Positions 21,001 through 39,178 of a stretch of 39,178 nucleotides of DNA are shown one piece after another. A model generated the notes under the pieces. That model did not search any database. It worked only from the letters and a program-made list of their open reading frames with translations, and was not told the DNA's origin. Positions within the stretch are counted from its first letter, which is position 1; each line of letters begins with the position of its first letter. Where the stretch lies: the UHGV virus genome UHGV-0034768; one strand, given 5' to 3'. The DNA comes from a virus. The position numbers and the translations under genes are program-made.

Positions 21001-21918
21001 AGTCTGACTGGCAGTAAGCGTAAGTTCGATGACCGCTGGCTGAAGACCGCTGGTATCTCTGACGAGCAGTGGAAGGGCATTAAGTCCCTAATCCGTGAGT
21101 CAGTGACTCGTGGGCCAGACGGGAAGTACATCATCAAGGATAAGAAGGCGTTCAGTCAGGACCCAAGGGCTATGGACCTGTGGCGCATGGGTGACACCAT
21201 AGCTGACGAAACGTTACTCCGTCCTCATAAGCTGTCAAACATGGACGCCAAGGCTTATGGCCCTCTCGCTAAGACTGTCCTTCAGTTTAAGAACTTCGTC
21301 ATCAAGTCCATCAATGGGCGAACCATGCGAACCTTCTACAACGCCACGAAGAACAACCGAGCGATGGACGCTGCCTTGTCCACTGTGATGTCTATGGGTC
21401 TCGCTGGTATCTACTACATGGCTCAAGCTCACGTCAAGGCTTACGCTATGCAGGATGGTCGAGACCGTGAATACCTCAAGCAAGCTCTTGACCCGACAAT
21501 GATTGGTTATGCGGCTCTGTCCCGTAGTTCACATCTGGGTGGTCCACTTGGGGTAGCTAACATTCTGGGTGGCATCGCTGGGTATGAGGACACTAAGATG
21601 CTCCGTTCGTCTATCCTACCCCGGTCGCCTACAGAGAAGCCTGAACGTGCCATCGCGTACGGTGCAACTACAAGTGGACCTGTGATGAATGTTGTTGGTA
21701 ACTTCTTGGAGCAGGTTCCAGCTTTCGGATATGCTGCTAACGTTGGCGCTTCGGCTTACAACTTGGCTGGCTACCTCAATGCTGATACTCGTGTCAACGA
21801 GCGTGACTACATGACCGGGATGTATAATACGTTCCGTGAACTGGTTCCGAACGACCCAATTACCCAGAAGCTGTTGCTTGGAACGTTTGAGGAGCAAGGT
21901 ATCCACATCAAGGACTAA
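18031..21918 (+). CDS. gp16: internal virion protein D with N-terminal lytic transglycosylase domain (T7 gp16-like)
   Basis: 1295 aa; N-terminus MATRGIRNNNPGNIR... typical of gp16 SLT domain; size and synteny. Confidence 0.9.
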   Translation: MATRGIRNNNPGNIRVSKDQWEGMTGDDGSFVVFDSPESGVRALGKNLLSYGRQGYDSIEKIINRWAPPNENDTKAYIDSVVAATGIPATQSLDLSNPDTLSSLAQAISFHETGSRYDPEVYQKGVARALNGISPKTPPVSSNVFDALTEGLKAKPKVALGENLPTAAGLNIEGQAPEAPNESFGEMFYKATGDTMQEREDRSTWFGFGAATEAEVKNSMVGMAIRAGQTEDSLDVIGDVFNPTRWNNHKWSRDELDQIRNSGVLPQYYGVITGGSPQNLTELINLALENQKLDQERAKAGTGAQLAAGVIGAGVDPLTYVPIAGQVGKGGKLINKMFTVAAQSGALSGVSEMARTSVAGGEAHVAEAILGGALFGGGMTAIADGLGRALGRNTNEFAGPATRLEARETARNVDGQDLSRMPIREGEETFSHQGVKFADVPNEPGSVRLEDGSILIGENPLNPKTRQVFDEVIEPERASAGVNLGGLTEIGLKLLRSENPEIRGVAADLVRSPTGMQSGASGKIGTTASDVFERLRAVDHRFYNDIDDAVTEALKDPYFQTAFWRDSGAFRQDIYQRVSMAIEDGSGNLKAELTPGELKVYDLLKNQFDAKREMMENPAMFGRPDAKSIFPGSRFKGTYVPHVYSKQMKELYTKELGSPEALQEAIKKSWLTSYASRPEVKKRVDEALLEADHTLTPEGLAAAVDKYANDKAYGISHTEQFERSSVMEENINGLVGLENNSFLEARNLFDSDMSIVLPNGQTFSVNNLREWDMDKIVPAYNRRVNGDIAIMAGTGKTTKEMKDLVETMMNKAGDDGKLKGEVSTLRDTLKILTGRARRDGADDAAFATVMRTMTDLSFFAKNAYMGVQNLTEIGGMLARGNVRALLHGVPMFRDLAFRNKKVGASEIKDLHNVIFGKELDDSIRPSKQDVIDRLRSYSDLGRGTATALGTAKYYTGELAVRSPFTKVLNGTTNYLLDAGRQGFLSDIVEHSLTGSKRKFDDRWLKTAGISDEQWKGIKSLIRESVTRGPDGKYIIKDKKAFSQDPRAMDLWRMGDTIADETLLRPHKLSNMDAKAYGPLAKTVLQFKNFVIKSINGRTMRTFYNATKNNRAMDAALSTVMSMGLAGIYYMAQAHVKAYAMQDGRDREYLKQALDPTMIGYAALSRSSHLGGPLGVANILGGIAGYEDTKMLRSSILPRSPTEKPERAIAYGATTSGPVMNVVGNFLEQVPAFGYAANVGASAYNLAGYLNADTRVNERDYMTGMYNTFRELVPNDPITQKLLLGTFEEQGIHIKD

Positions 21919-21936
21919 ACTATCACTATAGGAAAC
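21914..21936 (+). promoter_or_regulatory. phage RNAP promoter (phi17 position), ACTAAACTATCACTATAGGAAAC
   Basis: Consensus match; +1 G at 21931. Confidence 0.8.
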
Positions 21937-21982
21937 TGGAGGCGCTACCATAGGTCTCCGTTTAAATCACAAAGGAGGCATA

Positions 21983-24247
21983 ATGTCCACGATTACACAA
22001 TTCCCTTCAGGAAACACCAAGTACAGGATTGAGTTCGACTACCTAGCCAGAACGTTTGTTGTTGTTACGCTGGTGAATAGCTCTAACCCTACCCTAAACC
22101 GTGTACTGGAAGTTGGTCGAGATTACCGATTCCTTAATCCAACGATGATTGAGATGTTGGTTGACCAATCAGGTTTCGACATCGTTCGTATTCACCGTCA
22201 GACTGGAACTGACTTAGTGGTAGACTTCAGGAATGGCTCAGTGTTGACAGCTAGTGACCTGACCAATGCAGAGCTTCAGGCTATCCATATTGCAGAAGAA
22301 GGTCGAGACCAAACTGTTGACTTAGCGAAGGAATATGCCGATGCTGCTGGTAACTCTGCTGGAAACGCTAAGGATAGCGAGGACGAAGCACGACGAATCG
22401 CTGAGAGTATCAAGGCAGCTGGTCTAATTGGTTATATTACCCGTCGCTCCTTCGAGAAAGGCTTCAACGTTACAACATGGAACGAGGCCCTGCTATGGGA
22501 AGAGGATGGTGATTATTACCGCTGGGATGGTACGCTTCCAAAGAACGTTCCTGCTGGTTCAACTCCTGAATCATCTGGCGGTATTGGGCTGGGTGCGTGG
22601 GTTAGTGTTGGAGATGCCACATTGCGCACGGAATTAAATCTGATAACTAGATACTTTTCGACCGCTACTCAATTACCTGGAATACGAGCTAAAATAGGGC
22701 AGAGGATTATAACACTTGGTTATTACTCGGCAGGCGATGGTGGTGGTGCTGAATATATTGTAACATCAGGGGTGCCAAATCAAGACTACTCTGATGCAGG
22801 ATCGATTGCTATCTCAGATAATTCTTTCGCAAAGCTCGTCCAAAAACCACAATTTGACCTTAAACAGTTCGGAGTAAAACCATCTGACGCGTCTGCGGCA
22901 GCGGATAATGATGTATTTATCGCTCAGGCAATAATGCGTTCACGCTTCGGGTTCTGCAAAATAACTATATCTGACGTAGTATACCACAAAAAGCCTTTAG
23001 TGTTCGATTACTATAACCACATGGAAGGTAATACTATTGGCGGCGATGCAAGTTACACTCCGCGATTCCGAAAAATCGATAACACGACAAGCGGAATTGC
23101 ACCACTGGCGTACCCTAATGTCAGTGATACCGTGAACTATGATGTGGACGCTGGAATAATTTTGAAGCGACAGAATGCGGCAACGGATTATTGTCGAGGC
23201 GTTGTTTTAAAAGGCTTTCTCTTAGAGTCAATGGCGAAGTCAGCATGGGCAATTTATGCCCCCCATGCCGCAGATTTCGATATTGATATAGATAGCCGTG
23301 GGTTCAACGGTGGAATCCGTGGGAATGTTAATTTCCTTGGTAGGTACTCTGGACGCCATGTGGGGCTTGGTGAGAATGCGGTAGACCCTACGCTTGCTAT
23401 AGGTCTATGGTTTAGTCATTTCTCAACCATCCTCGACTGCGGTAATTCAGTTACTTTCCGCAATTCATTTAACGGATTCAACAGAGCCATACAGGCTGAG
23501 TATTTTGGGAACGGAATACTTGACCGTTGTACCTTCGAAAACATCAAAAAGCCGGTTGTTGGCGCCCCAACTACGTTCGGCATTAGCGCAACAAACAGTT
23601 GGTTTAGTGGTCAAATATCATGCGAGAGTTCATCAACATGTATCATACGTGCTGGCAATAACGCGAACTTCGATATTACCCTTAGTGCGGTATTTCATGT
23701 CACGCAAGATGATATTGCGGAGGGGATTATCCATGTTCTTAGCGGTGGCAGGGTTAACCTGCGCCCTTCCACAATTCTTGCTGATTTGCCAGATACAAAA
23801 ATCATTAATGATAATGGAGGTTATCTAGATATTGCTGCAAATACCAGAGCAGCAAATATTGTTTATTCCAATCATGATACTTACAGATTCAAAGACAGAA
23901 CTATTGGCTTTGGTCAGACTGCGGCAACTACAAAAACAAGTTTCTCTTCTGGTGAAGAGATTACATTTTCACTACTAAACGGAACGCCAAAGGCGAATCT
24001 ATCTGGCGGAACGATCCAGTTTAACTCTCCGGGCCTGATTAAAATCACCGTACAGGGGAGGGGTATAACATCAGGATCACTTACTTTTGGGATAAATGGG
24101 GCATCTTCAGAGAGCGTGAGTCAGGGACAGCAGGTTTCTATGGTTGTCGGAGTAACGTCCGGTGACATTCTTAACCTGAAGGCGGCCTCCTCGCTGACGT
24201 TGGGATCTGCAGGAGGGGTGCGGGTACTTCTTGAGCCTGTGTTTTAA
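21983..24247 (+). CDS. gp17: tail fibre/tailspike: T7 gp17-like N-terminal anchor fused to a probable beta-helix polysaccharide depolymerase
   Basis: N-terminal ~150 aa resembles T7 gp17 ([27 protein letters not shown]); remainder is G/S/T/N-rich with pectate-lyase-like motifs ([32 protein letters not shown]); DNA visibly AT-richer from about 22630. Confidence 0.85.
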
Positions 24248-24251
24248 ACTT

Positions 24252-24278
24252 AAACCCGCTTCGGTGGGGTTATTTTTA
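24252..24278 (+). terminator. intrinsic terminator-like hairpin with TTCG loop and U-run
   Basis: AACCCGC-TTCG-GTGGGGTT followed by ATTTTTA, immediately after the tail fibre stop. Confidence 0.55.
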
Positions 24279-24375
24279 TCATCAGAAGGTTGTGGAGGTA
24301 GAGGCTAACTACACGCTGACCAACGTATGGTAACAACTTTGGGTCACGGACGACCCGCTTTAAACTGGAGGTTTT

Positions 24376-24570
24376 ATGATTGAGTTAGACTTCAAGAATG
24401 AGGTCCTTAAAGCCTCTCCTATCGTCGGGACCGCTGCGGCTGATGGTGCCAGTCGGTTCTTCTTTGGACTCACACTGAACGAATGGTTCTACGTTGCGGC
24501 TATCGCGTACACCGTTGTCCAAATTGGTGTGCTAGTCTACAAAACGATTAAAGGAGGTGGTAAAACATGA
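24376..24570 (+). CDS. gp17.5: class II holin (T7 gp17.5-like)
   Basis: 64 aa; near-identity to T7 holin over KA.PIVGT..AD...R.FFGL.LNEWFYVAAIAYTVVQIG. Confidence 0.9.
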   Translation: MIELDFKNEVLKASPIVGTAAADGASRFFFGLTLNEWFYVAAIAYTVVQIGVLVYKTIKGGGKT

Positions 24571-24830
24571 CGCAGATTGACTTAGAGAAGTTCCTCTTAA
24601 TGTTAGATACTGAACGTGCTCGACTCATGCTGCAAGACCTGCGGGATGACTCTAAGCGTTCACCTCAGCTTTACAACGCCATTGAGAAGCTACTGGCTCG
24701 TCACAACTTCGTGCTAAGCAAGGTGTCTGTTGACGAGAAGACGCTCGCTGATATGGAGGCCCTGAACGCAGAGTACGATAAGGTGCTCTCAGCTACGGAA
24801 GATAATGACACTGGATACGGAGTGCAGTAA
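24567..24830 (+). CDS. gp18: terminase small subunit (T7 gp18-like)
   Basis: 87 aa (T7 gp18 is 89 aa), RBS AAAGGAGG, ATGA overlap with holin stop. Confidence 0.85.
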   Translation: MTQIDLEKFLLMLDTERARLMLQDLRDDSKRSPQLYNAIEKLLARHNFVLSKVSVDEKTLADMEALNAEYDKVLSATEDNDTGYGVQ

Positions 24831-24940
24831 ATCTCTTAAGTGTTAGACTCAAGGTCCTTACTATATGTAGGGGCCTTTATGGTTAACACTAACTAGTGGA
24901 GGCGACTCTACGTGAAATCTGATAAACCGGGAGGGCAACT

Positions 24941-25405
24941 ATGCTCGAATTTTTAAAGAGAGCGGCTCCGTGGTTACTTGCAGCAGTGATGTTTGCTGGT
25001 GGCTACCACACCGCTAACAATAAGTGGGAGGCTAAGGTCAATGCAGAATACACCTCGAATCTTAAGGCATCGGAAGATACAAGGCTTGCTGTCCAAGCTG
25101 AAGTCAACAAAGTGTCCAAGCGGTTTCAGGACGAAATGTCCTCGCTGGAAGGCAGCACTGATAGGATTATTGCTGACCTTCAGTCTGACAATAAGCGGCT
25201 GCGCATCCGAGTCAAACCTACGAGTGGAACCACGCAAAGTGACGGTCGATGCGTCATTGATGGTTACGCCGAACTTGACGAACGAGATGCTAAACGTCTT
25301 ATCGCCATCGGATTAAAAGGAGACTCGTGGATTAAGGCCCTTCAAGATACTGTTCGTAAACTTCAACAAGACCGGGGTAGCTATGGGAATTATAATAACA
25401 ACTGA
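24941..25405 (+). CDS. gp18.5: i-spanin Rz (T7 gp18.5-like)
   Basis: 154 aa; N-terminal TM segment; matches T7 gp18.5 (MLEFL, LEGSTDRII.DL.SDNKRLR.RVK, RDAKR, ALQDT.R.LQ). Confidence 0.9.
   Translation: MLEFLKRAAPWLLAAVMFAGGYHTANNKWEAKVNAEYTSNLKASEDTRLAVQAEVNKVSKRFQDEMSSLEGSTDRIIADLQSDNKRLRIRVKPTSGTTQSDGRCVIDGYAELDERDAKRLIAIGLKGDSWIKALQDTVRKLQQDRGSYGNYNNN
25041..25316 (+). CDS. gp18.7: o-spanin Rz1 (T7 gp18.7-like), embedded in the +1 frame of Rz
   Basis: Embedded ORF with basic N-region, hydrophobic stretch ALIGLLLTFSLTISG and lipobox Cys (LTISGC); ATG at 25041 is 100 nt into Rz, as in T7; start not certain. Confidence 0.6.
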   Translation: MQNTPRILRHRKIQGLLSKLKSTKCPSGFRTKCPRWKAALIGLLLTFSLTISGCASESNLRVEPRKVTVDASLMVTPNLTNEMLNVLSPSD

Positions 25406-26168
25406 GACAGACGTGGTGTGGCACTACACTACAGGAGACCCTAGTGGTCGAAAGAACGCATCCGGGCATCTCCAAGAAGGTACTATAGAAGTTGTGGTTC
25501 CAGAGAATGCGCTGACAGCACGCCTGTACGTGACTGGAGGTCTGACGGTAAGCAAAGACTTCACGTCTACTTTCGGCTGGCCTATAACTGTAGGTGGAGT
25601 GACCGTGGAGAGACTCTGGGTCGATTCCGATGGCGAGACAGTCCTGAGTGTCTCATCTACCACTGGTAACGGTGTAGTAAAGATTGAGTACGACTGGGAG
25701 AAGACCAGACCTATTGACCACGCTGAATACACACTAGACGTCCGTAACTGGACAGGAACTAAGGAGTGTCCCGCTGGTGTGTTCACTGAGATTGTTAGTC
25801 TTCCGTGGGTAAAAGTCATAGATGCGAACGTAGTGTCAATCACAGGGTCTACCCTCAAGTTCCCGGCTATGGATGGTCTAAGCACATTGGTCTTCGCTGT
25901 GAGACTTACTGGTACGTATCCTACCCAATCCGAGCACACATGGTCTGTCATTATTCGAAGACCTACAGGTCAGGTACTATCAGTAGTACAGGAGGCTGAC
26001 AACAAGGTATCGTTCTCCACTCGTGAGACTACTATTCACAGCTACATTGCAGACATAGACGACCCGTTCGTGACCTCTGGTGTGGTGATTGGTGTGGAGA
26101 ATACCTCATCTCAGGCCCTGACTTTAACAGCCATAACGTTGCGTATAGAGCGCATATTTAACGTATAA
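25383..26168 (+). CDS. hypothetical 261-aa beta-rich protein inserted between the lysis cassette and terminase large subunit
   Basis: Long ORF with T/V/S/G-rich composition; overlaps the Rz end by 23 nt; no counterpart in T7 where gene 19 follows 18.5 directly; function unknown. Confidence 0.7.
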   Translation: MGIIITTETDVVWHYTTGDPSGRKNASGHLQEGTIEVVVPENALTARLYVTGGLTVSKDFTSTFGWPITVGGVTVERLWVDSDGETVLSVSSTTGNGVVKIEYDWEKTRPIDHAEYTLDVRNWTGTKECPAGVFTEIVSLPWVKVIDANVVSITGSTLKFPAMDGLSTLVFAVRLTGTYPTQSEHTWSVIIRRPTGQVLSVVQEADNKVSFSTRETTIHSYIADIDDPFVTSGVVIGVENTSSQALTLTAITLRIERIFNV

Positions 26169-26180
26169 GGAGGTGACGCA

Positions 26181-27944
26181 TTGAGTAAAGACTTAGTGGC
26201 GCGTCAGGCGCTAATGACTGCCCGTATGAAGGCAGACTTCGTGTTCTTCCTGTTCGTCCTGTGGAAAGCTCTGTCACTCCCAGTCCCGACTCGCTGTCAG
26301 ATTGACATGGCGAAGAAACTATCGGCTGGGGACAACAGGCGTTTCATCCTACAGGCGTTCCGTGGTATCGGGAAGTCCTTCATTACGTGTGCCTTCGTGG
26401 TATGGAAACTATGGAACAACCCAGACTTGAAGTTCATGATTGTGTCGGCCTCAAAGGAGCGAGCCGATGCTAACTCCATCTTCATCAAGCGCATCATCGA
26501 CCTCATGCCTCAGCTTCAGGAACTCAAACCTAAGCAGGGACAGCGAGATGCGGTTATCAGCTTCGACGTTGGACCAGCCAAGCCAGACCACTCACCCTCG
26601 GTTAAGTCCGTTGGTATCACTGGTCAGTTGACTGGTAGTCGTGCTGACATCCTGATTGCCGATGACGTGGAGGTTCCTAACAACTCTGCGACTCAGGCTG
26701 CGCGAGATCGACTTTCAGAGCTTGTGAAAGAGTTCGACGCTATCCTGAAGCCGGGAGGTACAATCATCTATCTGGGTACTCCTCAGAACGAGATGACCCT
26801 ATATCGTGAGCTGGAAGGCCGTGGGTACACCACTACTATCTGGCCAGCTCGTTATCCACGCGACAGGAAAGACTGGCAGTCTTACGGCGACCGTCTGGCA
26901 CCGATGCTTCAGGCAGAGCTAGAAGAGGACCCTGAGTCATTCTACTGGCGTCCTACCGATGAGGTACGATTCGATGATACGGACCTGAAGGAACGTGAGC
27001 TATCCTATGGTAAAGCTGGCTTCGCTCTACAGTTCATGCTTAACCCGAACCTGAGTGATGCTGAGAAGTACCCTCTGAAGCTCCGTGACCTTATCGTAGC
27101 AGACTTGGACCCAGCGTCCAGCCCAATGGTATACCAATGGTTGCCAAACCCTCAGAACAAGCGTGAGGACGTTCCTAACGTTGGACTCATGGGTGACTCA
27201 TACCACACGTATCAGACTGTAGGTTCTGCCTTCAGCTCATACACCCAGAAGATTCTGGTCATTGACCCTAGTGGTCGTGGTAAGGATGAAACTGGATATG
27301 CGGTACTGTATCAACTCAACGGCTACATCTTCGCTATGGAAGTTGGTGGTATGCGTGGAGGGTATGAAGACTCTACGCTGGAAGCATTGGCTAAGATTGG
27401 TCGTAAGTGGAAGGTCAACGAATACGTCATTGAGGGTAACTTCGGTGATGGTATGTACCTTGAGCTATTCAAGCCTGTAGCGGCCCGTATCCATCCTGCG
27501 GCTGTAACTGAAGTGAAGAGTAAGGGTCAGAAAGAACTCCGCATCTGTGACGTTCTGGAGCCTATCATGGGGTCTCACAGACTTATTGTTAACGCTGCTG
27601 CTATCGTCCAAGACTACCAGACAGCTGCCGACAAGGATGGTGTGCGTAACCCTATCTACTCTCTCTTCTACCAGATGACCCGTATCTCTCGTGAACGTGG
27701 AGCCTTGGCACACGATGACAGACTTGATGCGCTGGCTATAGGTGTACAGTTCTTCGTTGAGTCTATGGCTAAGGATGCCAACAAAGGTGAACGTGAAGTC
27801 ACTGAGGAGTGGCTTGAGGAACAGATGGAGAACCCACGGAAAGGCTTCGAGTCCATCCACACTGAGTTCTGGGACAATGGGGTCCGGGTAACTCACGATA
27901 CGGACGACGAGCTGGGACTAGGGTCATACGTTACGTTCCACTAG
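26181..27944 (+). CDS. gp19: terminase large subunit (T7 gp19-like)
   Basis: 587 aa; TTG start with AAGGAGGTGA RBS; blocks [68 protein letters not shown] match T7 gp19. Confidence 0.95.
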
Positions 27945-28038
27945 CTGAATGAATAACTATAGGTGAAAGCTGCATGAATACGCAGTTAGTACCCTATAGT
28001 TACTACCAGTATAACCTACTGTTTTACAAGGAGTTTGG

Positions 28039-28061
28039 ACTTAACTATCACTATAGGGAAG
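28039..28061 (+). promoter_or_regulatory. phage RNAP promoter (phiOR position), ACTTAACTATCACTATAGGGAAG
   Basis: Consensus match; +1 G at 28056; downstream of terminase near the genome right end, as T7 phiOR. Confidence 0.8.
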
Positions 28062-28241
28062 ACCCCAGGTTACTTATAGTATTACTGTAGTGAATATACA
28101 TATGCAGACTTTATGCAAGACCTTAGGAGGCAGACTCCGAGTTCTTACCTAAGGCTTGCACCGATGGAAGGAGGGTGATATTAATCATAATCCCTCCAAT
28201 ACAGATAGTCACCGACCATAGATACAGGAGGTATGTAGCAT

Positions 28242-28400
28242 ATGGCAAAGACCAAAGCTGTACTTAAAGCTCTGGCGACCAATCGAGCTACATACAGGTT
28301 TCTTGCTGCTGTTCTACTTGCTGCTGGCGTTACTGCTGGAAGTCAGTGGGTCGGGTGGGTCGAGACTCTCGTATGTTCTCTGGTGTCTCAGTGTAATTAA
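28242..28400 (+). CDS. small hydrophobic protein (positional analogue of T7 gene 19.5)
   Basis: 52-aa ORF not in the supplied track (under 60 aa); strong RBS ACAGGAGG 8 nt upstream; predicted TM-like segment. Confidence 0.5.
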   Translation: MAKTKAVLKALATNRATYRFLAAVLLAAGVTAGSQWVGWVETLVCSLVSQCN

Positions 28401-28559
28401 CGCAATCATGGTAACGATTCACGAGCGGAAGACCTAAGGTCAGTACGTGGATAAAGACTCACTCTACTGACCTTAGCTACTGTAGTCAAGGACTTTAGGT
28501 AACACCTTAAGAGAAGCTCACTTAGGGTCATCCTACTTATTGGTCTATCCTAGTGTCGC

Positions 28560-28605
28560 CTGACCTACGGTCCTTGACCTACAGTGGCTGTGGCCTACAG
28601 TAGTG
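28560..28605. repeat. short direct repeats (GACCTACGG / CCTACAGT x3) to the right of the putative terminal repeat
   Basis: Read directly; analogous to the T7 CCTAAAG-type repeat arrays flanking the terminal repeat. Confidence 0.6.
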
Positions 28606-28639
28606 ACGATGAGTTTTGGACCAAAAGTTTGAGACCACA

Positions 28640-28835
28640 TCTCACAGTTCAAGAACTTCAAGTCTCCCCATAGGCCCTCTTTCAGTCCAGACCAAAGGCC
28701 CTCCCCAGTCTATCATAAGGTTGGACCTATGGTCAAGACGTTAGGTCGACGATAGGTCTAGGCTATGGCTGGAGGTCAGACGATAGGTAGGGACTATTGG
28801 TTGTCTCCGAGTCTCTATCTGTATACCATAGGTCT
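28640..28835. repeat. candidate direct terminal repeat region (single collapsed copy); probable physical left end near 28640
   Basis: TCTCACAGT...CTCCCCATAGG at 28640 and ...TGTCTCCGAGTCTCTATCTGTATACCATAGGTCTC resemble the T7 left-end terminal repeat (TCTCACAGTGTACGG...CCCCCATAGGGGG ... TGTCTCTCTGTGTCCCTATCTGTTACAGTCTCC). Confidence 0.4.
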
Positions 28836-28839
28836 CAAC

Positions 28840-28926
28840 AACCTACAGTCCTACAGCCTACAGTCTAACAACCTACAGTCACCGACCATCGGTAAAGCCA
28901 TTACCTACAGTCAAAAGACCTACAGT
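28840..28926. repeat. array of about six CCTACAGT short direct repeats
   Basis: Copies at 28842, 28850, 28857, 28872, 28904, 28919; counterpart of the T7 CCTAAAG array between the terminal repeat and promoter A1. Confidence 0.7.
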
Positions 28927-29039
28927 TAATAGACACAAAGCTATAGACTTAAGGTCTAAGACATGTTAGTCAAAGACTATATCCTCTTAGTCACTATGGG
29001 GCCGACGATAGCTTAATCGATATTATTTAAGATTACCTA

Positions 29040-29068
29040 TTGACTATAGGTCTAGACTATGGCCTAAT
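29040..29068 (+). promoter_or_regulatory. candidate host sigma70 early promoter (A1-like)
   Basis: TTGACT at 29040-29045, then a 17-nt spacer and a weak -10 (CCTAAT); collinear with T7 A1 (TTGACTTAAAGTCTAACCTATAGGATACT). Confidence 0.4.
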
Positions 29069-29180
29069 AGCTTCCGTCAACACGACACGGCAACAACCGG
29101 ATAGTGAAGACGCCGGGTCATCCCGGTTAAGTAGACAGCCTGATAAGTCATACGAACAACAGGCAGATGACAGAAAGCAG

Positions 29181-29210
29181 TTGACAAGATGTACCGACTT
29201 AAAGTAGTAT
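29181..29210 (+). promoter_or_regulatory. candidate host sigma70 early promoter (A3-like)
   Basis: TTGACA at 29181-29186, 18-nt spacer, TAGTAT at 29205-29210; flanking sequence CCGGATA.GTAGACAGCCTGATAAGTC closely matches the T7 A2/A3 region. Confidence 0.5.
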
Positions 29211-29398
29211 GTACCACATCGAAACAACAGTGATGACCAACACTGAAATGGTCTACCTGAAGTCCTCTGACTGAAGGGAATGCTCTTTAACAATCTGGAT
29301 AAAACTCTTAATGTGCGCCGATAGCGACTAACTACAGGGCCTTTGAGTATACATCTGAAGGCCCTGACTGATAGTCACTAACTTAAAGGATGGACACT

Positions 29399-29644
29399 AT
29401 GAAACACTTAAGCACAATCACTAATCGCAATGAAATATTCGTGAACACTAAAGGTTATGCGTGGATTCAGCTTAAAGAGCTGACAGGAGCGCGTCACCGT
29501 GTGGTAGTGCGCAAGGTCTCAAGCAAGCCGTTCAGCAACTACAGCGTAGATACTGTGCGTATAGACAACGAGACCTACCTGATAGACTCGCAGATAACCG
29601 TGCGTCCTACAGCGGGCGTCCCAGCTCCTTATTTCGCTAACTGA
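29399..29644 (+). CDS. hypothetical early protein (first gene after the early promoters, upstream of ocr)
   Basis: 82-aa ORF (second ATG chosen, AAAGGA 7 nt upstream); preceded by a structured leader; no recognisable domain. Confidence 0.6.
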   Translation: MKHLSTITNRNEIFVNTKGYAWIQLKELTGARHRVVVRKVSSKPFSNYSVDTVRIDNETYLIDSQITVRPTAGVPAPYFAN

Positions 29645-29732
29645 GAGTGATTAACTACAGGTCGTTAGACTCATAGCGGCCTGACTGATAGCCACTAACA
29701 TACGCACTAACAACTTTTGAGAGGATATAACT

Positions 29733-30077
29733 ATGGAACGTAACGCTAACGCATACTATGAGCTGCTGGCTGCAACCGTTGAAGCATTTAACGAGCGTAT
29801 TCAGTATGACGAAATAGCTGAAGGCGATGAGTACCACGATGCACTGCATGAGGTCGTAGACGGTCAGGTCCCGCATTATTACCACGAGATTTTCACGGTG
29901 ATGGCTGCTGATGGTATAGACCACGAGTTTGAGGACTCTGGGCTGATGCCTGAGACCAAGGACGTAACGCGTATACTGCAAGCTCGCATCTATGAGGCAT
30001 TGTATAACGACGTGTCTGATAGCTCGGATGTGGTCTGGTTTGAGGCTGAAGAGGAAGACGAAGAGGACTGCGAGTGA
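29733..30077 (+). CDS. ocr: Ocr, DNA-mimic anti-restriction protein (T7 gp0.3-like)
   Basis: 114 aa, very acidic; blocks [49 protein letters not shown] match T7 Ocr ([41 protein letters not shown]). Confidence 0.95.
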
Positions 30078-30226
30078 TAGTAACTTATGGTCTCTGCAAG
30101 CACCACGTCACCAACGCCAGGATTTTGGTCAAGACCGGGCGGTTAAACCACGATGCGGCTATGCGTCACCTGAAAGCGGTCTACGAGGACCGCAAGCGCA
30201 CCCACGACAGCTTACACGCTGAGTGA
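30074..30226 (+). CDS. possible gp0.4-like small protein (T7 gp0.4 inhibits FtsZ)
   Basis: 50-codon ORF not in the supplied track, GTG start overlapping the ocr stop; product ..TYGL....[13 protein letters not shown]....LHAE resembles recalled T7 gp0.4 (..QYGL....AMAQLKELYENNK....ESAE). Confidence 0.45.
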
Positions 30227-30292
30227 TAGACGAGAGGTCATCGACTGATAGGTGGCCTCAAAGATTATCACTTACATTGATAGGAGTTAACT

Positions 30293-30382
30293 ATGAACAT
30301 CGGTTACTGGGTATGCCTGTCTCCGGTCATCTTTCTGATAGCTTGGGGCCTTCTGGACGCAATCAAGCGAGGGTCATTCTAA
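30293..30382 (+). CDS. 29-aa hydrophobic peptide (early, gene 0.5-like position)
   Basis: MNIGYWVCLSPVIFLIAWGLLDAIKRGSF with TAGGAG RBS 7 nt upstream; short, so uncertain. Confidence 0.35.
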   Translation: MNIGYWVCLSPVIFLIAWGLLDAIKRGSF

Positions 30383-30576
30383 TGAGCTGGATACTTCTGG
30401 TCATTGGCTACGGGTTAATACTCGCAGTCATCATGAAAGACATCAACAAAGCGCGTACAGTCTACAACTTCAACTATGTGCGTCTGGGTCGCTGGACTGT
30501 ACGTCAACCTAACGGGCGATTCATGCGCAACTTAGCGAACGTCTGGGATATAGCAACTATCGGGAGTAAACTGTAA
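30382..30576 (+). CDS. 64-aa early membrane protein
   Basis: MSWILLVIGYGLILAVIM... single TM segment; TAATG overlap with the upstream peptide; the track ORF 30223-30576 is likely a 5' over-extension. Confidence 0.5.
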   Translation: MSWILLVIGYGLILAVIMKDINKARTVYNFNYVRLGRWTVRQPNGRFMRNLANVWDIATIGSKL

Positions 30577-30902
30577 TGAACAAGTCATACGGGATTAATC
30601 TGGTACACTCTATGGACGCAGAAATGAACATGTTAAGCCTACTGGCTACCGGGTATCGTCACGGAACGTCAAGTCACACCGCACGTCAACAGCAGGAGCG
30701 GGACCGTGTACTACAGGCACGACTCCAGGCAGAGGGCCATAAGGCTGAGCTGATGTGGCTGGCGTATGGTGGACGACCTATCACCGACGATGGTAAACTT
30801 CTGGTCTCAGGCTGGAAGGCGATAGACCAACGGTCAACCATCAAGCACACGACTCACGGTGACTTCAGTCATCTACACGCTAACCCATTGATATGCAAGT
30901 GA
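30576..30902 (+). CDS. hypothetical early protein (108 aa) at the position of the absent gp0.7 kinase
   Basis: ORF with ATG overlapping the upstream stop; no kinase motifs; immediately upstream of the RNAP gene. Confidence 0.6.
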   Translation: MNKSYGINLVHSMDAEMNMLSLLATGYRHGTSSHTARQQQERDRVLQARLQAEGHKAELMWLAYGGRPITDDGKLLVSGWKAIDQRSTIKHTTHGDFSHLHANPLICK

Positions 30903-30907
30903 TTCTG

Positions 30908-30930
30908 ACTTAACTATCACTATAGGACTC
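30908..30930 (+). promoter_or_regulatory. phage RNAP promoter directly upstream of the RNAP gene, ACTTAACTATCACTATAGGACTC
   Basis: Consensus match; +1 G at 30925, 74 nt upstream of the RNAP start codon. Confidence 0.75.
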
Positions 30931-30998
30931 AAGGTCTAAGACTCCAAGTGAAAGACCAAAGAGACTTAAGTGAAAGACTAATAACAAGGACTTTAAGT

Positions 30999-33680
30999 AT
31001 GAGCGTCATCTCCATTGACAAACACGACTTCTCTGATGTGTCTAACGCTATTGAGCCGTTTAACCTGCTGGCTGACCACTACGGGCAAGACCTTGCAGTC
31101 AAGCAACTTCAGCTTGAGCATGAGGCATACACTGAAGGCGAGCGACGTTTCATCAAGAACCTTGAGCGTCAGACAGAGCGCGGTGAACTGGCAGACAATC
31201 AGGTCGCCAAGCCTTTGATGCAGACTCTGGTCCCTAAGATTGCGCAAGCCGTCAAGGAGTGGCATGACGGTCCAGACGGGAAGATGTCAACATCTCGTCC
31301 TAGCGTAGCGTTCACCATGTTGAGCACTGAAGAGAAGGCCGTCAAGGACCGCTCTCTGCGCATCTCCTGTGAGTCTGCTGCGGTTATCATACTGAAGGTC
31401 ATCCTCTCCAAGCTGGTAAAGCCTGAAGGGATACCGATTACACCGATGGCCTCAGCGATAGGTCGCACACTTGAGGACGAAATCCGCTTCGGTCGCATCC
31501 GTGACAAGGAGAAGGAGCACTTCAAGAAGGCGATAGCTGAGAACCTGAACAAGCGAGCCGGGGCATCCTACAAGAAAGCCTACATGCAAGCTGTTGAGAC
31601 CTCCATGCTTGAGCAAGGTCAACTGGAAGATGCGTGGGGAACTTGGAGTCCGACCGAGGCGGTCCATGTTGGCATCAAGATGCTTGAGATTGTCATCCAG
31701 TCCACTCAACTGGTAGAGCTTAAGCGTTATGGTGCTGGCAATGCAGCGGCTGATGTTGAGATGGTCCACCTATCAGACTTCTGGGTCAAGAAGATGGCCC
31801 AACGTGGCTTCAGCCTTGCGGGTATCGCTCCAGTCTATCAACCTTGCGTAGTTCCACCTAAGCCGTGGACGGGTGTCGTAGGCGGTGGGTATTGGGCCAA
31901 AGGACGCAGACCGTTGCCACTGATTCGCTTAGGGTCTAAGTCTGCGGTAGCACGTTATGAGGACGTGTACATGCCTGAAGTCTATGACGCTGTGAACATC
32001 ATCCAGAATACACCTTGGAAAGTTAACAAGAAGGTGTTGGACGTGGTGAACATGGTCGAGAAGCTGAACAACACGCCTATTGATGATATCCCTCAGATGG
32101 AGCCACTGAAGCCTGAAGACTATGCGGGTGAGACTGAAGAGGAACTCAAGGCATGGAAGAAGGCTGCTGCTGGTATCTACCGCCGAGAGAAGGCCCGGCA
32201 GTCACGTAGATTGTCACTGAGCTTTATCGTTAACCAGGCTAACAAGTTCTCTCAGTTCAAGGCCATCTGGTTCCCGTATAACATGGACTGGCGCGGTCGC
32301 GTATACGCTGTGCCGATGTTCAACCCTCAGGGTAACGACATGCAAAAGGGTCTCCTTACTCTGGCAGTCGGTAAGCCTATTGGTGCTGATGGTTTCAAAT
32401 GGCTGAAGGTCCACGGTGCAAACTGTGCGGGTATTGATAAAGTCACCTTCGAGGAGCGCATCAAGTGGGTGGAAGACAACCACGACAACATCATGACTAC
32501 TGCTAAGGCACCGATGGACAGCATTGAGTGGTGGGGTAAGTTAGACTCTCCGTTCTGCTTCCTCGCGTTCTGCTTCGAGTATGCTGGCGTAATGCACCAC
32601 GGCCTATCTTACTCTTGCTCGCTACCGATAGCTTTCGATGGGTCCTGCTCTGGGATTCAGCACTTCAGCGCGATGCTTCGAGATCACATCGGTGGACATG
32701 CAGTAAACTTGACGCCATCCGGTAAGGTCCAAGACATCTACCGCATCGTATCCGACCGCATTGAGGAGGAACTTAAAGTCCTGCTGGTTAACGGTACGGA
32801 CAACGAGATGGTAACTCACGAGGATAAGAAAACTGGTGAGATTACCGAGCGTCTCAAGCTGGGGACACGAGAGCTGTCCCGTCAGTGGCTGACCTACGGT
32901 ATGTCACGCAAGGTTACTAAGCGTTCGGTTATGACTCTGGCCTACGGGTCGAAAGAGTACGGCTTCGCAGACCAAGTTTACGAGGACATCGTGATGCCAG
33001 CGATTGACTCAGGGTCTGGTGCCATGTTCACCGAGCCAAGCCAAGCGTCTCGTTTCATGGCTAAGATGATTTGGGAAGCTGTGAGTGTGACCGTAGTCGC
33101 TGCGGTTGACGCAATGAAGTGGCTTCAAGGTGCTGCTAAGCTGCTGGCTGCTGAAGTAAAGGACAAGAAGACAGGCGAAATACTGAAGCCTTGCCTTCCG
33201 GTACACTGGGTAACACCTGATGGTTTCCCGGTCTGGCAGGAATACCGCAAGAAGGATACAACCCGTCTGAACCTGATGTTCTTAGGGTCGTTCAACCTTC
33301 AGCCTACCGTCAACAGGGGTACGAAGAAAGAGCTGGACAAGCACAAGCAGGAGTCAGGCATTAGCCCGAACTTCGTCCACTCACAAGATGGTAGCCACCT
33401 CCGCAAGACTGTAGTCCACACGCACCGCAAGTATGGCGTAATGTCCTTCGCAGTGATTCACGATAGCTTCGGGACCATCCCGGCTGACGCTGAGTATCTG
33501 TTCCGTGGGGTCCGTGAGACTATGGTAGAGACCTACCGCGACAATGATGTGCTGCTTGACTTCTACGAGCAGTTCGAATACCAGCTTCACGAGAGCCAGC
33601 GCGACAAGTTGCCTGAGCTTCCGAAGAAAGGTAAACTGAACATAGAAGACATCTTGTCTTCAGACTTTGCATTCGCTTAA
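30999..33680 (+). CDS. gp1: DNA-directed RNA polymerase, single-subunit (T7 gp1-like)
   Basis: Start at MSVISIDKHDFSD (T7 MNTINIAKNDFSD) with AAGGA RBS; extensive identity to T7 RNAP including PWTGVVGGGYWA, FPYNMDWRGRVYAV, NCSLP.AFDGSCSGIQHFSAMLRD, HDSFGT, and C-terminal FAFA. Confidence 0.97.
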   Translation: MSVISIDKHDFSDVSNAIEPFNLLADHYGQDLAVKQLQLEHEAYTEGERRFIKNLERQTERGELADNQVAKPLMQTLVPKIAQAVKEWHDGPDGKMSTSRPSVAFTMLSTEEKAVKDRSLRISCESAAVIILKVILSKLVKPEGIPITPMASAIGRTLEDEIRFGRIRDKEKEHFKKAIAENLNKRAGASYKKAYMQAVETSMLEQGQLEDAWGTWSPTEAVHVGIKMLEIVIQSTQLVELKRYGAGNAAADVEMVHLSDFWVKKMAQRGFSLAGIAPVYQPCVVPPKPWTGVVGGGYWAKGRRPLPLIRLGSKSAVARYEDVYMPEVYDAVNIIQNTPWKVNKKVLDVVNMVEKLNNTPIDDIPQMEPLKPEDYAGETEEELKAWKKAAAGIYRREKARQSRRLSLSFIVNQANKFSQFKAIWFPYNMDWRGRVYAVPMFNPQGNDMQKGLLTLAVGKPIGADGFKWLKVHGANCAGIDKVTFEERIKWVEDNHDNIMTTAKAPMDSIEWWGKLDSPFCFLAFCFEYAGVMHHGLSYSCSLPIAFDGSCSGIQHFSAMLRDHIGGHAVNLTPSGKVQDIYRIVSDRIEEELKVLLVNGTDNEMVTHEDKKTGEITERLKLGTRELSRQWLTYGMSRKVTKRSVMTLAYGSKEYGFADQVYEDIVMPAIDSGSGAMFTEPSQASRFMAKMIWEAVSVTVVAAVDAMKWLQGAAKLLAAEVKDKKTGEILKPCLPVHWVTPDGFPVWQEYRKKDTTRLNLMFLGSFNLQPTVNRGTKKELDKHKQESGISPNFVHSQDGSHLRKTVVHTHRKYGVMSFAVIHDSFGTIPADAEYLFRGVRETMVETYRDNDVLLDFYEQFEYQLHESQRDKLPELPKKGKLNIEDILSSDFAFA

Positions 33681-33694
33681 CAGGAGAGATAGTT

Positions 33695-33895
33695 ATGAAA
33701 TTTGCACACAAGCAGACAGGAGTTAAGGGTGGGACTCAAATCGTGACCGTAACAGAACATAATGGCAAGGGTCTGGTGAAGACCACAGTCATTCCTACCG
33801 AGATGTCAAAACAGCTTAACGTCCAGTTCAAGTGGCTGGTTAAGCAGGTGGAGCAGACGCACGAGCAGGTCCTTAAAGAGGCGGCAACCAAATGA
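33695..33895 (+). CDS. hypothetical protein (66 aa)
   Basis: ORF with CAGGAGAGA RBS right after the RNAP stop; no T7 counterpart at this position. Confidence 0.55.
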   Translation: MKFAHKQTGVKGGTQIVTVTEHNGKGLVKTTVIPTEMSKQLNVQFKWLVKQVEQTHEQVLKEAATK

Positions 33896-33973
33896 CAGAC
33901 CTACAGTTACTGGCCTTGTGGCTGGGAGCACTAGCAGTACTCACTCTAATCCAACGCAGAAGAGGTTAACCAT

Positions 33974-34453
33974 ATGTTCGGTAAGTCAAAACTTAAAGCA
34001 CAAATCAAAGAGTTGAGCATGAAGGTGGCATACTTGGAGCGAGTCGTAACGGTCCGGGATAAGGACAACGAGAGGCTGAAGGTTAAACTTGCTGAATCAG
34101 AGCGTAAGCGCCTGACACCACCAGCGGCTGTAACTGTCAAGCGTATGGTAGGCATCAAGTTCAAGGCACTGTTCAACGGGCTGTACCAACCGACTGAGTT
34201 CAAGACAGGGCCTGGTAGCTGCGGGAAGAACGTTAAGCATTTCACCATATCGAAGACTGAACGCACCATTACCATCCACCAGCACCACGTAGACGGGTCT
34301 CAGAAAGACTTTGAGTACCGACTGAGCGACATCGATGGTCGCATCCAGTATGACTACGAGCGGGTTAAGGTCTATGGCGAGGAGGCAGAGCAGGAACGTA
34401 TAGTACAAGCCTTACGCAACAGACAACGATTATACCCTAAACTATCACTATAG
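33974..34453 (+). CDS. hypothetical protein (159 aa; N-terminal heptad-like helical region)
   Basis: ORF with GAAGAGG RBS; no T7 counterpart between gene 1 and gene 1.1; function unknown. Confidence 0.6.
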   Translation: MFGKSKLKAQIKELSMKVAYLERVVTVRDKDNERLKVKLAESERKRLTPPAAVTVKRMVGIKFKALFNGLYQPTEFKTGPGSCGKNVKHFTISKTERTITIHQHHVDGSQKDFEYRLSDIDGRIQYDYERVKVYGEEAEQERIVQALRNRQRLYPKLSL

Positions 34454-34458
34454 GATTA
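34436..34458 (+). promoter_or_regulatory. phage RNAP promoter (phi1.1 position), CCTAAACTATCACTATAGGATTA
   Basis: Consensus match; +1 G at 34453; overlaps the stop of the upstream ORF. Confidence 0.8.
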
Positions 34459-34529
34459 GACTCAAGGTCATGACTCAAAGTCGTGGCCTTCATGATTAAC
34501 CCTATAACCTAAACAACTGGAGCTACAAC

Positions 34530-34709
34530 ATGTATCAGAACACTATCAACTTCGAGCGCATCCGTGAACGTCAGCAGACTGAAGATTACATTCCGAAGGG
34601 CCGCAAGCTGAACAAGACAAAGCGTGGCGGTGGTGTCAAGGGTGCTTTCCGTAACGCTGAAGGTAAAGACTCTCTGGTAAATCAAGAGAAATACTTCGTA
34701 GGAGCGTAA
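34530..34709 (+). CDS. gp1.1: gp1.1-like small basic protein
   Basis: 59-aa ORF not in the supplied track; contains KGRKLNKTKR as in T7 gp1.1. Confidence 0.7.
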   Translation: MYQNTINFERIRERQQTEDYIPKGRKLNKTKRGGGVKGAFRNAEGKDSLVNQEKYFVGA

Positions 34710-34712
34710 GAC

Positions 34713-35000
34713 ATGGGCATGTTCTCAAGAGCACATAGTGGAAACCTGAACACCCTGCGTAAAGCCATCCACAACTGGCAGTCCGAGACCGACTATAACG
34801 CAGTGGTCAACACTTGGTTTGACCCAAGGATGAACAGGCACTGCGTCAGGGCGGTTATAGTCCACATTCATACACGAGAGGTCCTCATCGAGAAGGACTT
34901 CACGGAGTACCCGAATATCCACGACGAAGATGTGCAGACAGTAGCGGTTGCCACTTGGTTTAACAAACAGTTCAACGACTACACTGGTCGATTCCTTTAA
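34713..35000 (+). CDS. gp1.2: gp1.2-like protein (T7 gp1.2 inhibits host dGTP triphosphohydrolase)
   Basis: 95 aa; MG....SGNL N-terminus and HDEDV motif as in T7 gp1.2. Confidence 0.75.
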   Translation: MGMFSRAHSGNLNTLRKAIHNWQSETDYNAVVNTWFDPRMNRHCVRAVIVHIHTREVLIEKDFTEYPNIHDEDVQTVAVATWFNKQFNDYTGRFL

Positions 35001-35017
35001 TTCTGGAGACATTAACG

Positions 35018-36058
35018 ATGACAACTATCAAAACTAACCCGCACCGCGCTGTAGATTACTCTGAGTCAGGCGTTACGAAAGCACTGGCAGCAGCCGGGTC
35101 GCTGGAAGCTGAAGTGAAGTACGATGGTGTGCGCCTGAATCTCCCGGTCCTGCGTGAAGGTGAGACCTACTGGCTGAGCCGTGAGTCTAAACCTCTTCCA
35201 GCCTTGGAGTGGATGAACTCTGAGTTAGGGAATGCGTGGACCCAAGCTGACTGGCGATGGTTCCTGCGTCAAGCTGGCTACGAAGGTGTGGGCATGATGA
35301 TTGATGGCGAGGTCATGGTCAAAGGTGTGGACTTCAACACCTCCTCAGGTCTAATCAGAACGAAGTGGCTAAAGCCTAACAATGAAGAGTTCGCTGAGTG
35401 CTATCCTGGACGTGGTAAGAAGGTCCCGTTCTGGGTCGCACGGTCACGACTTCAGGTTGTGGTCTACGGTGTCATCGACATGACAACAATTGCTGACCCG
35501 AAAGCCGAAGGCCCTATACATAGCGTCACACGCCTTAAGGCCGAAGCTATCGTCCCTCTCCTCCAGAAATACTTCCCGGAAATCGACTGGGTTCTGTCTG
35601 AGTCACACACGGTCTATGACCTTGAGTCGCTCAACTCCCTGTACGAACAGAAGCGTCTGGAAGGACACGAGGGTCTGGTAGTCAAGGACCCACTGGGTAA
35701 ATATAAGCGTGGCAAGAAGTCAGGCATGTGGAAGATGAAGCCTGAGGAGACCATCGACGGGACCGTGTGTGGTCTCGTGTGGGGGACTCAGGGTAAGGCC
35801 AACGAAGGTAAGGTGATTGGCTTCGAGGTGCTGCTTGAGGATGGCATGGTGGTTAATGCTTGTGGCCTGACTGAAGAACAGAAGGCTGAGTTTACGGAAG
35901 CCTGTAACACTGATACATATATTCTCGGTGGAATCAATCCATACGAAGGCTGGCAGTGTGAAGTGCTATTCATGGAGCGGTTCCCTGATGGCTCTCTTCG
36001 TCACCCTAGCTTCAAGTGCTGGCGTGGAACGGAAGACAATCCAACCGTTAAGAGTTAA
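35018..36058 (+). CDS. gp1.3: ATP-dependent DNA ligase (T7 gp1.3-like)
   Basis: 346 aa; adenylation motif KYDGVR; blocks MVKGVDFNTSSGLIRTKW, YEQKRLEGHEGLVVKDP, KRGKKSGMWKMKPE, PDGSLRHPSF..WRGTEDNP match T7 ligase. Confidence 0.95.
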   Translation: MTTIKTNPHRAVDYSESGVTKALAAAGSLEAEVKYDGVRLNLPVLREGETYWLSRESKPLPALEWMNSELGNAWTQADWRWFLRQAGYEGVGMMIDGEVMVKGVDFNTSSGLIRTKWLKPNNEEFAECYPGRGKKVPFWVARSRLQVVVYGVIDMTTIADPKAEGPIHSVTRLKAEAIVPLLQKYFPEIDWVLSESHTVYDLESLNSLYEQKRLEGHEGLVVKDPLGKYKRGKKSGMWKMKPEETIDGTVCGLVWGTQGKANEGKVIGFEVLLEDGMVVNACGLTEEQKAEFTEACNTDTYILGGINPYEGWQCEVLFMERFPDGSLRHPSFKCWRGTEDNPTVKS

Positions 36059-36065
36059 CTAGACG

Positions 36066-36108
36066 TCAACCCAGTGGTCTTAGGACTGCTGGGTTTCTTT
36101 GCTTTGTG
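36066..36108 (+). terminator. early (TE-like) intrinsic terminator after the ligase gene
   Basis: AACCCAG...CTGGGTT 7-bp stem followed by TCTTTGCTTTG; same position as T7 TE. Confidence 0.6.
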
Positions 36109-36140
36109 CTAGCAAGCTATCGTCTGGCCACCAGCCTGAC

Positions 36141-36163
36141 CCTAAGCTATCACTATAGGACAA
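36141..36163 (+). promoter_or_regulatory. phage RNAP promoter (phi1.5 position), CCTAAGCTATCACTATAGGACAA
   Basis: Consensus match with G at -12; +1 G at 36158. Confidence 0.75.
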
Positions 36164-36191
36164 CCATAACTTCGACCTAAGGAGGCCGACC

Positions 36192-36446
36192 ATGTTTAAG
36201 AACTTAATGTTCAACCGTTATTCCAGTACCTTCCACCTGTCCAACAACCCGTTCGCTTGCATTAAGCGCAACGAGAAGCTGGGATACTTCGGGAAGGCCG
36301 TTAAGCTGTCACCTACAGTCTTCGCTCTGATTACTCCGGGAAAAGCTGAAGAGGCTCGCCAGAAGCGTGAGACCAACGTACCTGTGGTCTACACTAAGTG
36401 GCCTCGCGTTCGTCTGTTCGTCGAGTTCATGAAGGAGGTGTTCTGA
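36192..36446 (+). CDS. gp1.6: gp1.6-like protein
   Basis: 84 aa; C-terminal ...WPRVRLFVEFMKEVF resembles T7 gp1.6 ...FPFVRLLLKRIKEVF. Confidence 0.75.
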   Translation: MFKNLMFNRYSSTFHLSNNPFACIKRNEKLGYFGKAVKLSPTVFALITPGKAEEARQKRETNVPVVYTKWPRVRLFVEFMKEVF

Positions 36447-36784
36447 TGGGATATGTATGTAACTGTGAGCGTGACTATGACACAAGTGATGGACATGCAC
36501 TTGATTGTGCTATTCACAGTGGCAACACCAAAGACAATATGATCGAAGGTGTCACTAAGCCATCACATTACATGCTGTTTGATGACATTGAGGCTATCGA
36601 AGTGATTGCCCGTTCGATGACCAATGAGCAGTTCAAAGGGTATTGCTTAGGTAACGTCCTGAAGTATCGACTCCGAGCTGGTAAGAAATCCGAGCTGGCT
36701 ACTATGGAGAAGGACCTGAACAAAGCAGCCTTCTATCAGGAGCTGTTCAACCTACATAAAGGTAAGTGCTATGCTGCCGAGTGA
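36446..36784 (+). CDS. gp1.7: gp1.7-like nucleotide kinase, short form (112 aa)
   Basis: IEGVTKPSHYMLFDDIEAIEVIARSMT..EQFKGYC.GN.LKYRLRAGKKSELA matches the C-terminal half of T7 gp1.7; start at ATG 36446 with GAAGGAGGTG RBS. Confidence 0.85.
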   Translation: MGYVCNCERDYDTSDGHALDCAIHSGNTKDNMIEGVTKPSHYMLFDDIEAIEVIARSMTNEQFKGYCLGNVLKYRLRAGKKSELATMEKDLNKAAFYQELFNLHKGKCYAAE

Positions 36785-36862
36785 GTGGTGCCGGGAGATG
36801 TACGAGAAGACTCTCAACCCGGACTACATTACGTTATACAACCAATGGAAGGAGCGCGGTTT

Positions 36863-37021: not shown

Positions 37022-37039
37022 ACTATCACTGTAGGACAG
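37017..37039 (+). promoter_or_regulatory. variant phage RNAP promoter (phi2.5 position), CCTAAACTATCACTGTAGGACAG
   Basis: Consensus except G at -3; +1 G at 37034. Confidence 0.6.
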
Positions 37040-37078
37040 ACGTCCAGTTCGTAACTTTAAATTAGGAGATTTAAACCG

Positions 37079-39168: not shown

Positions 39169-39178
39169 TAAACTCTAA

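Follow-up and report, generated by a model that had tools for sequence, protein, structure and literature searches.

The 39,178-nt window analyzed here (the whole stretch of DNA, UHGV virus genome UHGV-0034768) carries, between gene 19.5 and the ocr gene, a segment flanked by arrays of a short direct repeat. This layout raises the question of where the linear genome of the phage begins and ends, and why its ends should lie inside the window. We conclude that the region represents the concatemer-junction form of Kayfunavirus genome ends, a reading to which we assign a probability of roughly 0.93. On the evidence of sequence comparison, the linear virion DNA would run from position 28640, the segment 28640–28816 would be present at both of its ends, and the two copies would have been merged by the assembler.

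Results

Identity of the Genome

Judged by identity and synteny, the window is a complete Kayfunavirus genome (a K1F-like coliphage; Studiervirinae, T7 group), with ~93% identity to deposited relatives. A 1.2-kb query around the end region matched 388 phage records, the best of which were all Kayfunavirus-type (92–94% identity), and positions 20000–39178 of the window align with P762, PSK1, and other Kayfunavirus-type records at 92–94% identity across ~80% of the length. The large ORFs all lie on the + strand in the gene order of T7. Their products include a T7-type large terminase, a single-subunit RNA polymerase (30948–33680), ocr, and a small terminase (Table 1), and the position of gene 19 agrees with that of gene 19 in EcoDS1 and T7. 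The arrangement around the putative ends is that expected of the T7 group, with the terminase genes 18 and 19, phiOR, and gene 19.5 upstream and host promoters and early genes downstream. A scan of the entire window against Rfam, with gathering thresholds applied, yielded no hits.

Two genes outside the end region deserve mention. A 261-aa ORF (25383–26168, + strand) is flanked by the genes for an Rz-like spanin and the large terminase, a place where T7 has no gene. It has no Pfam match and belongs to PHROG 17779 (unknown function); full-length homologues occupy the same position in just a few Kayfunavirus-type phages (EPr2, 94.6%; CLB_P1 and P762, ~46%), and its C-terminal half is similar to proteins of unrelated podophages, one of them labelled "tail needle knob." The tail fibre/spike gene (21983–24247, + strand) is a mosaic, in which the N-terminal ~220 residues match T7-type tail-fibre adaptor families and the other ~520 match a different PHROG, 32960, of unknown function. 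A composition of this kind is consistent with exchange of a receptor-binding module.

Table 1. Features in and around the putative genome ends, in window coordinates
Feature	Position	Strand	Sequence, matches, and remarks
Gene 18, small terminase subunit, 87 aa	24567–24830	+	PHROG 1351 "terminase small subunit," E = 5e-34
Gene 19, T7-type large terminase, 587 aa	26181–27944	+	Pfam PF22530 (Terminase-T7 RNaseH-like), E = 6e-38; also PF03237
phiOR-type phage RNA polymerase promoter	28042–28061	+	TAACTATCACTATAGGGAAG; between genes 19 and 19.5; phiOR annotated at the same place in EcoDS1 and T7
Gene 19.5, 52 aa, last gene of the genome	28242–28400	+	PHROG 2193, E = 6e-25; EcoDS1 gp19.5 at the same position
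Perfect 12-bp inverted repeat	28434–28476		CTAAGGTCAGTA / TACTGACCTTAG, 19-nt spacer; centre 185 bp left of the terminal repeat
Right-end array (left of the repeat), 3 units	28564–28601	+	28564 CCTACGGT, 28578 CCTACAGT, 28594 CCTACAGT; spacing 14–16 nt
Conserved 35-bp block	28605–28639	+	GACGATGAGTTTTGGACCAAAAGTTTGAGACCACA; adjoins the start of mature left ends
Predicted direct terminal repeat, 177 bp, one copy in the window	28640–28816	+	Starts of at least 10 relatives; repeat lengths in relatives
Putative equivalent of ATCTGTT, the class II pause signal at the T7 concatemer junction	28817–28824	+	ATCTGTAT; sole ATCTGTA in the window
Left-end array (right of the repeat), 6 units	28842–28926	+	28842, 28850 (CCTACAGC), 28857, 28872, 28904, 28919; 5 exact CCTACAGT
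A1-like host (sigma-70) promoter	29040–29076	+	TTGACT ... CCTAAT; aligns with T7 A1 and with EcoDS1 host promoter 469–505 (its first annotated)
Second host promoter, A2/A3 hybrid relative to T7	29181–29210	+	TTGACA-18-TAGTAT; 10/12 consensus positions
Small 84-aa ORF before ocr	29390–29644	+	PHROG 10124
Gene 0.3 (ocr DNA mimic), early gene	29733–30077	+	Pfam PF08684 (ocr), E = 1.7e-31

Predicted Left End of the Genome

A query spanning 28640–28840 matched 112 records, and the first base of at least 10 GenBank relatives aligns exactly to window position 28640 (TCTCACAGTTCAAG...). The records that start at this base are EcoDS1, HC13, NS1, YZ1, LS3, ECG4, LS2, IMEP24, Peacock, and yong1. The EcoDS1 record annotates a terminal repeat at 1–178 and 39075–39252, with a concatemeric junction at 177–184, and the Peacock repeat (1–179) is a PhageTerm prediction. 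These records uphold the proposal of an earlier note on this DNA that the linear genome starts near 28640. The window reads TCTCACAGT at this position, in keeping with the left-terminus pattern of the T7 group, TCTCA(C/T)AGT; the same bases are found in T7, K11, K1F, and EcoDS1, and T3 carries TCTCATAGT.

The note had also described the segment from 28640 as resembling the left end of T7, and the resemblance is borne out by alignment. When window positions 28640–28826 were globally aligned with T7 bases 1–170, 117 of 193 columns were identical, with a score of 120 versus 56 ± 9 for 200 shuffles. Identity peaks at the two ends of the segment (TCTCACAGT on the left, CTATCTGT on the right). Across T7, T3, K11, K1F, and the window, the ends of the repeat are likewise the conserved parts: the left one reads TCTCA(C/T)AGT and the right one T.TCT..G.GTC.CTATCTGT.

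Small ORFs overlap the repeat and the arrays (28616–28744 and 28765–28929), and several GenBank relatives label ORFs within these elements "hypothetical protein." We regard both as spurious, since the curated T7, T3, and EcoDS1 records have no CDS over the repeats. Separately, a leftward sigma-70-like site lies inside the terminal repeat (28707–28736, − strand; TTGACC-18-TAGACT, with a TG upstream of the −10 element). It is reminiscent of A0, a leftward promoter in the T3 and T7 annotations.

Single Copy of the Repeat

The window contains the 177-bp segment a single time; the longest other self-match is 18 bases. The window runs unbroken and colinear with the EcoDS1 right end, the repeat, and the EcoDS1 left end. 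At the window termini, which join between the lysozyme gene (gene 3.5) and the next gene, no overlap remains, and a 309-base query that joins the last 144 bases to the first 165 finds full-length, single-piece matches in relatives (~96% identity). Because the repeat is single, the window ends are contiguous in relatives, and terminal overlap is lacking, we take the window to be cleanly circularly permuted, with its repeat collapsed to one copy; the earlier note was right on both counts. The virion DNA should then measure about 39,178 + 177 = 39,355 bp, with the 177-bp repeat at both ends.

Short-read assemblers are described as dropping one repeat copy and opening T7-like genomes mid-genome, an observation made for przondoviruses (PMC10438801), and many deposited Kayfunavirus records likewise hold a single internal repeat. 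In the present case, the identical copies would have been merged by the assembler and the sequence circularized and reopened between gene 3.5 and its neighbor. The resulting order would be right-end unique DNA, a single repeat, and left-end unique DNA. The same order is found in replicating concatemers of the T7 group, in which, to judge from T7 and T3, head-to-tail genomes are linked via one shared repeat.

This coincidence of order admits a second origin for the single copy, namely that it is not solely an assembler artefact and that the sequenced DNA, for instance metagenomic or intracellular DNA, included replicating concatemers. A T7-type concatemer junction has exactly the layout seen in the window, and concatemers contain one repeat per junction (PMC10438801). 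We nevertheless consider such a contribution unlikely: virion DNA alone would yield an identical contig, and many GenBank isolate genomes have the same internal single copy. The location of the ends would, in any case, be unchanged by it.

Right Boundary of the Repeat

In genomes deposited with two copies, the length of the repeat was computed as the longest prefix equal to the suffix. This gave 178 bp for EcoDS1 and K1F, 179 bp for Midid and Emlis, and 160 bp for T7. All five repeats open with TCTCACAGT and stop just before ATCTGT; the four from Kayfunavirus genomes stop directly before ATCTGTAT (K1F within one base in either comparison). The published length is 179 bp for the K1F repeat and, by run-off sequencing, 183 bp for that of the K1F-like phage SH3 (PMC4925675). 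Since the 178–179 bp repeats of relatives end just before ATCTGTAT, we place the repeat of the window at 28640–28816 (177 bp), with a right boundary that could be off by 1–2 bases. The segment is ~90–94% identical to Kayfunavirus repeats (E down to 1e-80); it is short and non-coding, and its length falls within the ~150–250 bp expected of such a repeat.

The sequence at the boundary is itself distinctive. The conserved junction sequence (C)TATCTGT follows the repeat directly. CTATCTGT, at 28815–28822, has its sole occurrence in the window here; in T7, T3, K11, and K1F it aligns with no variation, and in EcoDS1 it is labelled "concatemeric junction." The boundary reads ATCTGTT in T7, T3, and K11, whereas every Kayfunavirus genome examined has ATCTGTAT there. 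The window, with ATCTGTA like those genomes, thus lacks the strict T7 class II heptamer, ATCTGTT, at its junction. For the T7 polymerase, all seven bases of the heptamer are reported to be necessary, with any base change abolishing class II termination; because of this reported intolerance, pausing by the window phage's own polymerase at ATCTGTA is only assumed. Exact copies of ATCTGTT occur at 501 and 33496 (+ strand), within the primase/helicase and RNA polymerase genes, probably by chance.

Record ends supply a further view of the boundary. Among 16 IMG/VR loci with the junction sequence, 7 end 179–196 bases past the start of TCTCACAGT (6 at 179–191, GA2A at 196), and these stops mark a right genome end. 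Lengths are not uniform, and one could suppose that the termini are as described but that the repeat of this phage has boundaries other than 28640–28816, extending into the CCTACAGT array or ending earlier. In related loci whose junction is internal, TCTCACAGT and ATCTGTA are 166 to 231 bp apart, the GA2A repeat is annotated as 165 bp and its record stops 196 bases after the start of TCTCACAGT, and K1F differs by one base between its record (178 bp) and the literature (179 bp). However, every two-copy genome ends its repeat within one base of ATCTGT, the window has this signal once, at 28817, and the length variation among relatives is internal to the repeat rather than at its ends. A shifted boundary is, on this evidence, quite improbable.

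Sequences Left of the Repeat

Folded as single-stranded DNA, the perfect inverted repeat (Table 1) has a free energy of −11.3 kcal/mol (z = −4.7). Its arms are invariant across 16 related loci, and the spacer exists in two main versions. T7 has an imperfect inverted repeat (centre at 39588) 190 bp left of its terminal repeat, with a sequence unlike that of the window. A hairpin reportedly forms in T7 at the inverted repeat ~190 bp left of the repeat. From the corresponding position (185 versus 190 bp) and this work on T7, the inverted repeat of the window is likely to be the counterpart of the T7 hairpin-forming site. Hairpin DNA with the repeat is described as present in T7 infection (PMC4281155). 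A small palindrome at the left boundary (28605–28645) was considered as a second hairpin and set aside, as it folded no better than shuffled sequences (z = −1.7).

The 35-bp block that adjoins the left boundary is identical in EcoDS1, K1F, Midid, and Emlis. It is also nearly invariant in the 16 IMG/VR loci, where its last 9 bases belonged to the search pattern. More broadly, the ~210 bp preceding the terminal repeat (28430–28639) are near-invariant in 16 related contigs, even where unrelated sequence replaces the upstream gene 19.5 region. Near-invariance in the face of replaced upstream DNA argues for selection on a cis-acting signal.

That the region is not a genome end at all, the phage being circularly permuted (headful packaging) or cohesive-ended and the likeness to T7 a relic, has nothing positive in its favor and is very improbable, given a terminase of the T7 type, ends of close relatives fixed at the same base experimentally or by PhageTerm, boundaries strongly conserved on both sides in four genera, and the constancy of the 210 bp just described.

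Short-Repeat Arrays

The unit of the arrays is overrepresented: CCTACAGT matches exactly at 16 places in the window versus 1.75 ± 1.22 expected, and the highest count in any shuffle was 5. Between 28564 and 28926 there are nine copies of this type (seven exact, two with one mismatch), all on the + strand and distributed on both sides of the repeat. The earlier note had reported flanking short direct repeats at 28560–28605 and 28842–28926, and its coordinates were correct. The right-end array is conserved among relatives, and the left-end array also holds a diverged unit, GACCATCGGT. The nine exact copies of CCTACAGT away from the junction are mostly intragenic and share no common context.

The 160-bp terminal repeat of T7 is reportedly flanked by arrays of the short repeat CCTAAAG. 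By analogy of placement, the CCTACAGT arrays appear to correspond to these. To our knowledge, the role of the short-repeat arrays has not been established, even in T7; it is an old question across the T7 group, and the end region of the window raises no new biological one. Genera, and even close relatives, differ from one another in the type of unit and in how many copies they carry (see also PMC5923468).

It is possible, if doubtful, that the ~210-bp block (inverted repeat, right array, and 35-bp block) and the genus-specific CCTACAGT arrays together form a sequence-specific recognition module, in which a phage protein (gp18 or the polymerase-lysozyme complex) would bind the short repeats and so mark the junction. 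If so, the arrays would gain a function, and the changes from CCTAAAG to CCTACAGT and from ATCTGTT to ATCTGTA would reflect co-evolution with the binding protein.

The reverse complement of CCTACAGT, ACTGTAGG, is one mismatch away from the core ACTATAGG of the phage promoters (at 6141, 9960, 14641, 21917, and 28042). The T7 unit and the T7 promoter stand in a like relation, and the K11 units lack it. We regard the similarity as probable coincidence.

Promoters

A search with the 20-mer TAACTATCACTATAGGGAAG, allowing up to 3 mismatches, found five matches in the window where none was expected by chance. Of the host promoters, the A1-like one at 29040 has a weak −10 hexamer and was missed by a consensus scan. 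The second is composite. It aligns with EcoDS1 host promoter 2; relative to T7, the −35 side corresponds to A2 and the downstream part to the region following A3. The segment that bears a third host promoter is missing from the window, as it is from K1F. The earlier note had placed A1/A3-like host promoters after the arrays, which needs only minor correction. Two are present (29040 and 29181–29210), rather than the three of T7, and they lie outside the interval 28440–28930 to which the note had assigned the whole region.

In the stretch that follows the left array and leads up to the A1-like promoter, no phiOL-type promoter was recognized, as the position aligned with T7 phiOL is not promoter-like. 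The nearby sequence TTAGTCACTATGGGGCC was rejected as a candidate: it has 8 differences from the promoter 20-mer (counted by eye) and is not conserved in EcoDS1. Downstream of the host promoters, a stretch around GCTCTTTAACAATCTGG is conserved with T7 and would be the R0.3 RNase III region.

Discussion

Proposed Formation of the Ends

Reading from left to right, the window presents the terminase gene, phiOR, gene 19.5, the inverted repeat, the right array, the repeat, the pause-like signal, the left array, two host promoters, and ocr. As a sequence, this layout matches a T7 concatemer junction. Transferred to the window, the scheme known from T7 and T3 would operate as follows. Phage RNA polymerase starting from phiOR would cross gene 19.5 and the repeat and pause at the ATCTGT signal at 28817. 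The paused polymerase-lysozyme complex would then recruit the terminase (gp18 and gp19) and the prohead, and cutting by the terminase would generate the ends at 28640 and 28816. The second copy of the repeat is synthesized at maturation (PMC10438801, PMC5923468); in the window phage, this DNA synthesis would duplicate the repeat so that each of the neighboring genomes retains one, with the inverted repeat at 28434–28476 as the likely site used. Once the DNA is injected, the early genes (ocr, RNA polymerase) would be expressed from the host promoters at 29040 and 29181.

Some practical consequences follow for the record. The genome is best started at 28640 and given a second copy of the repeat, for a true length of ~39,355 bp. 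ORFs within 28616–28929 are best left unannotated, as the end region is non-coding in the curated EcoDS1, T3, and T7 genomes. The window is another case of an assembly artefact that is common in T7-like phages.

Comparison with Known Systems

The feature itself is already known: it is annotated in close relatives and belongs to the textbook biology of the T7 group. Collapsed-repeat assemblies of przondoviruses (PMC10438801) show the same internal single repeat and mid-genome opening, and nothing of substance sets the window apart from them.

The closest counterparts are in EcoDS1 (EU734172) and K1F (NC_007456). Both share with the window their first bases (TCTCACAGTTCAAGAAC), the 35-bp block, CTATCTGTAT at the right boundary, and the arms of the inverted repeat, as well as the order phiOR, gene 19.5, repeat, and host promoters. 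Over the repeat, identity is ~90%, with E values from 2e-69 (EcoDS1) to 1e-80 (ZG49). The differences are small. The repeat is 177 bp in the window and 178 bp in EcoDS1 and K1F, owing to one 1-bp deletion. A stretch of ~23 bp that separates the inverted repeat from the right array in the window is missing from EcoDS1. EcoDS1 carries three host promoters, whereas the window has two, as does K1F. The left array mixes ACCATAAGT and CCTACAGT in EcoDS1 and K1F, whereas that of the window is shorter and almost purely CCTACAGT.

T7 itself resembles the window in plan more than in detail. The first 9 bases and CTATCTGT at the right boundary are identical, short-repeat arrays stand on the same strand on both sides of the repeat, and phiOR, gene 19.5, and an inverted repeat ~190 bp to the left precede it, with A1-type and A2/A3-type host promoters and then ocr on the other side. 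T7 differs in the length of the repeat (160 bp versus 177 bp in the window), the array unit (CCTAAAG versus CCTACAGT), the heptamer at the junction (ATCTGTT versus ATCTGTA), and the number of host promoters (three versus two), and it possesses phiOL, whereas the aligned position in the window has none that is recognizable.
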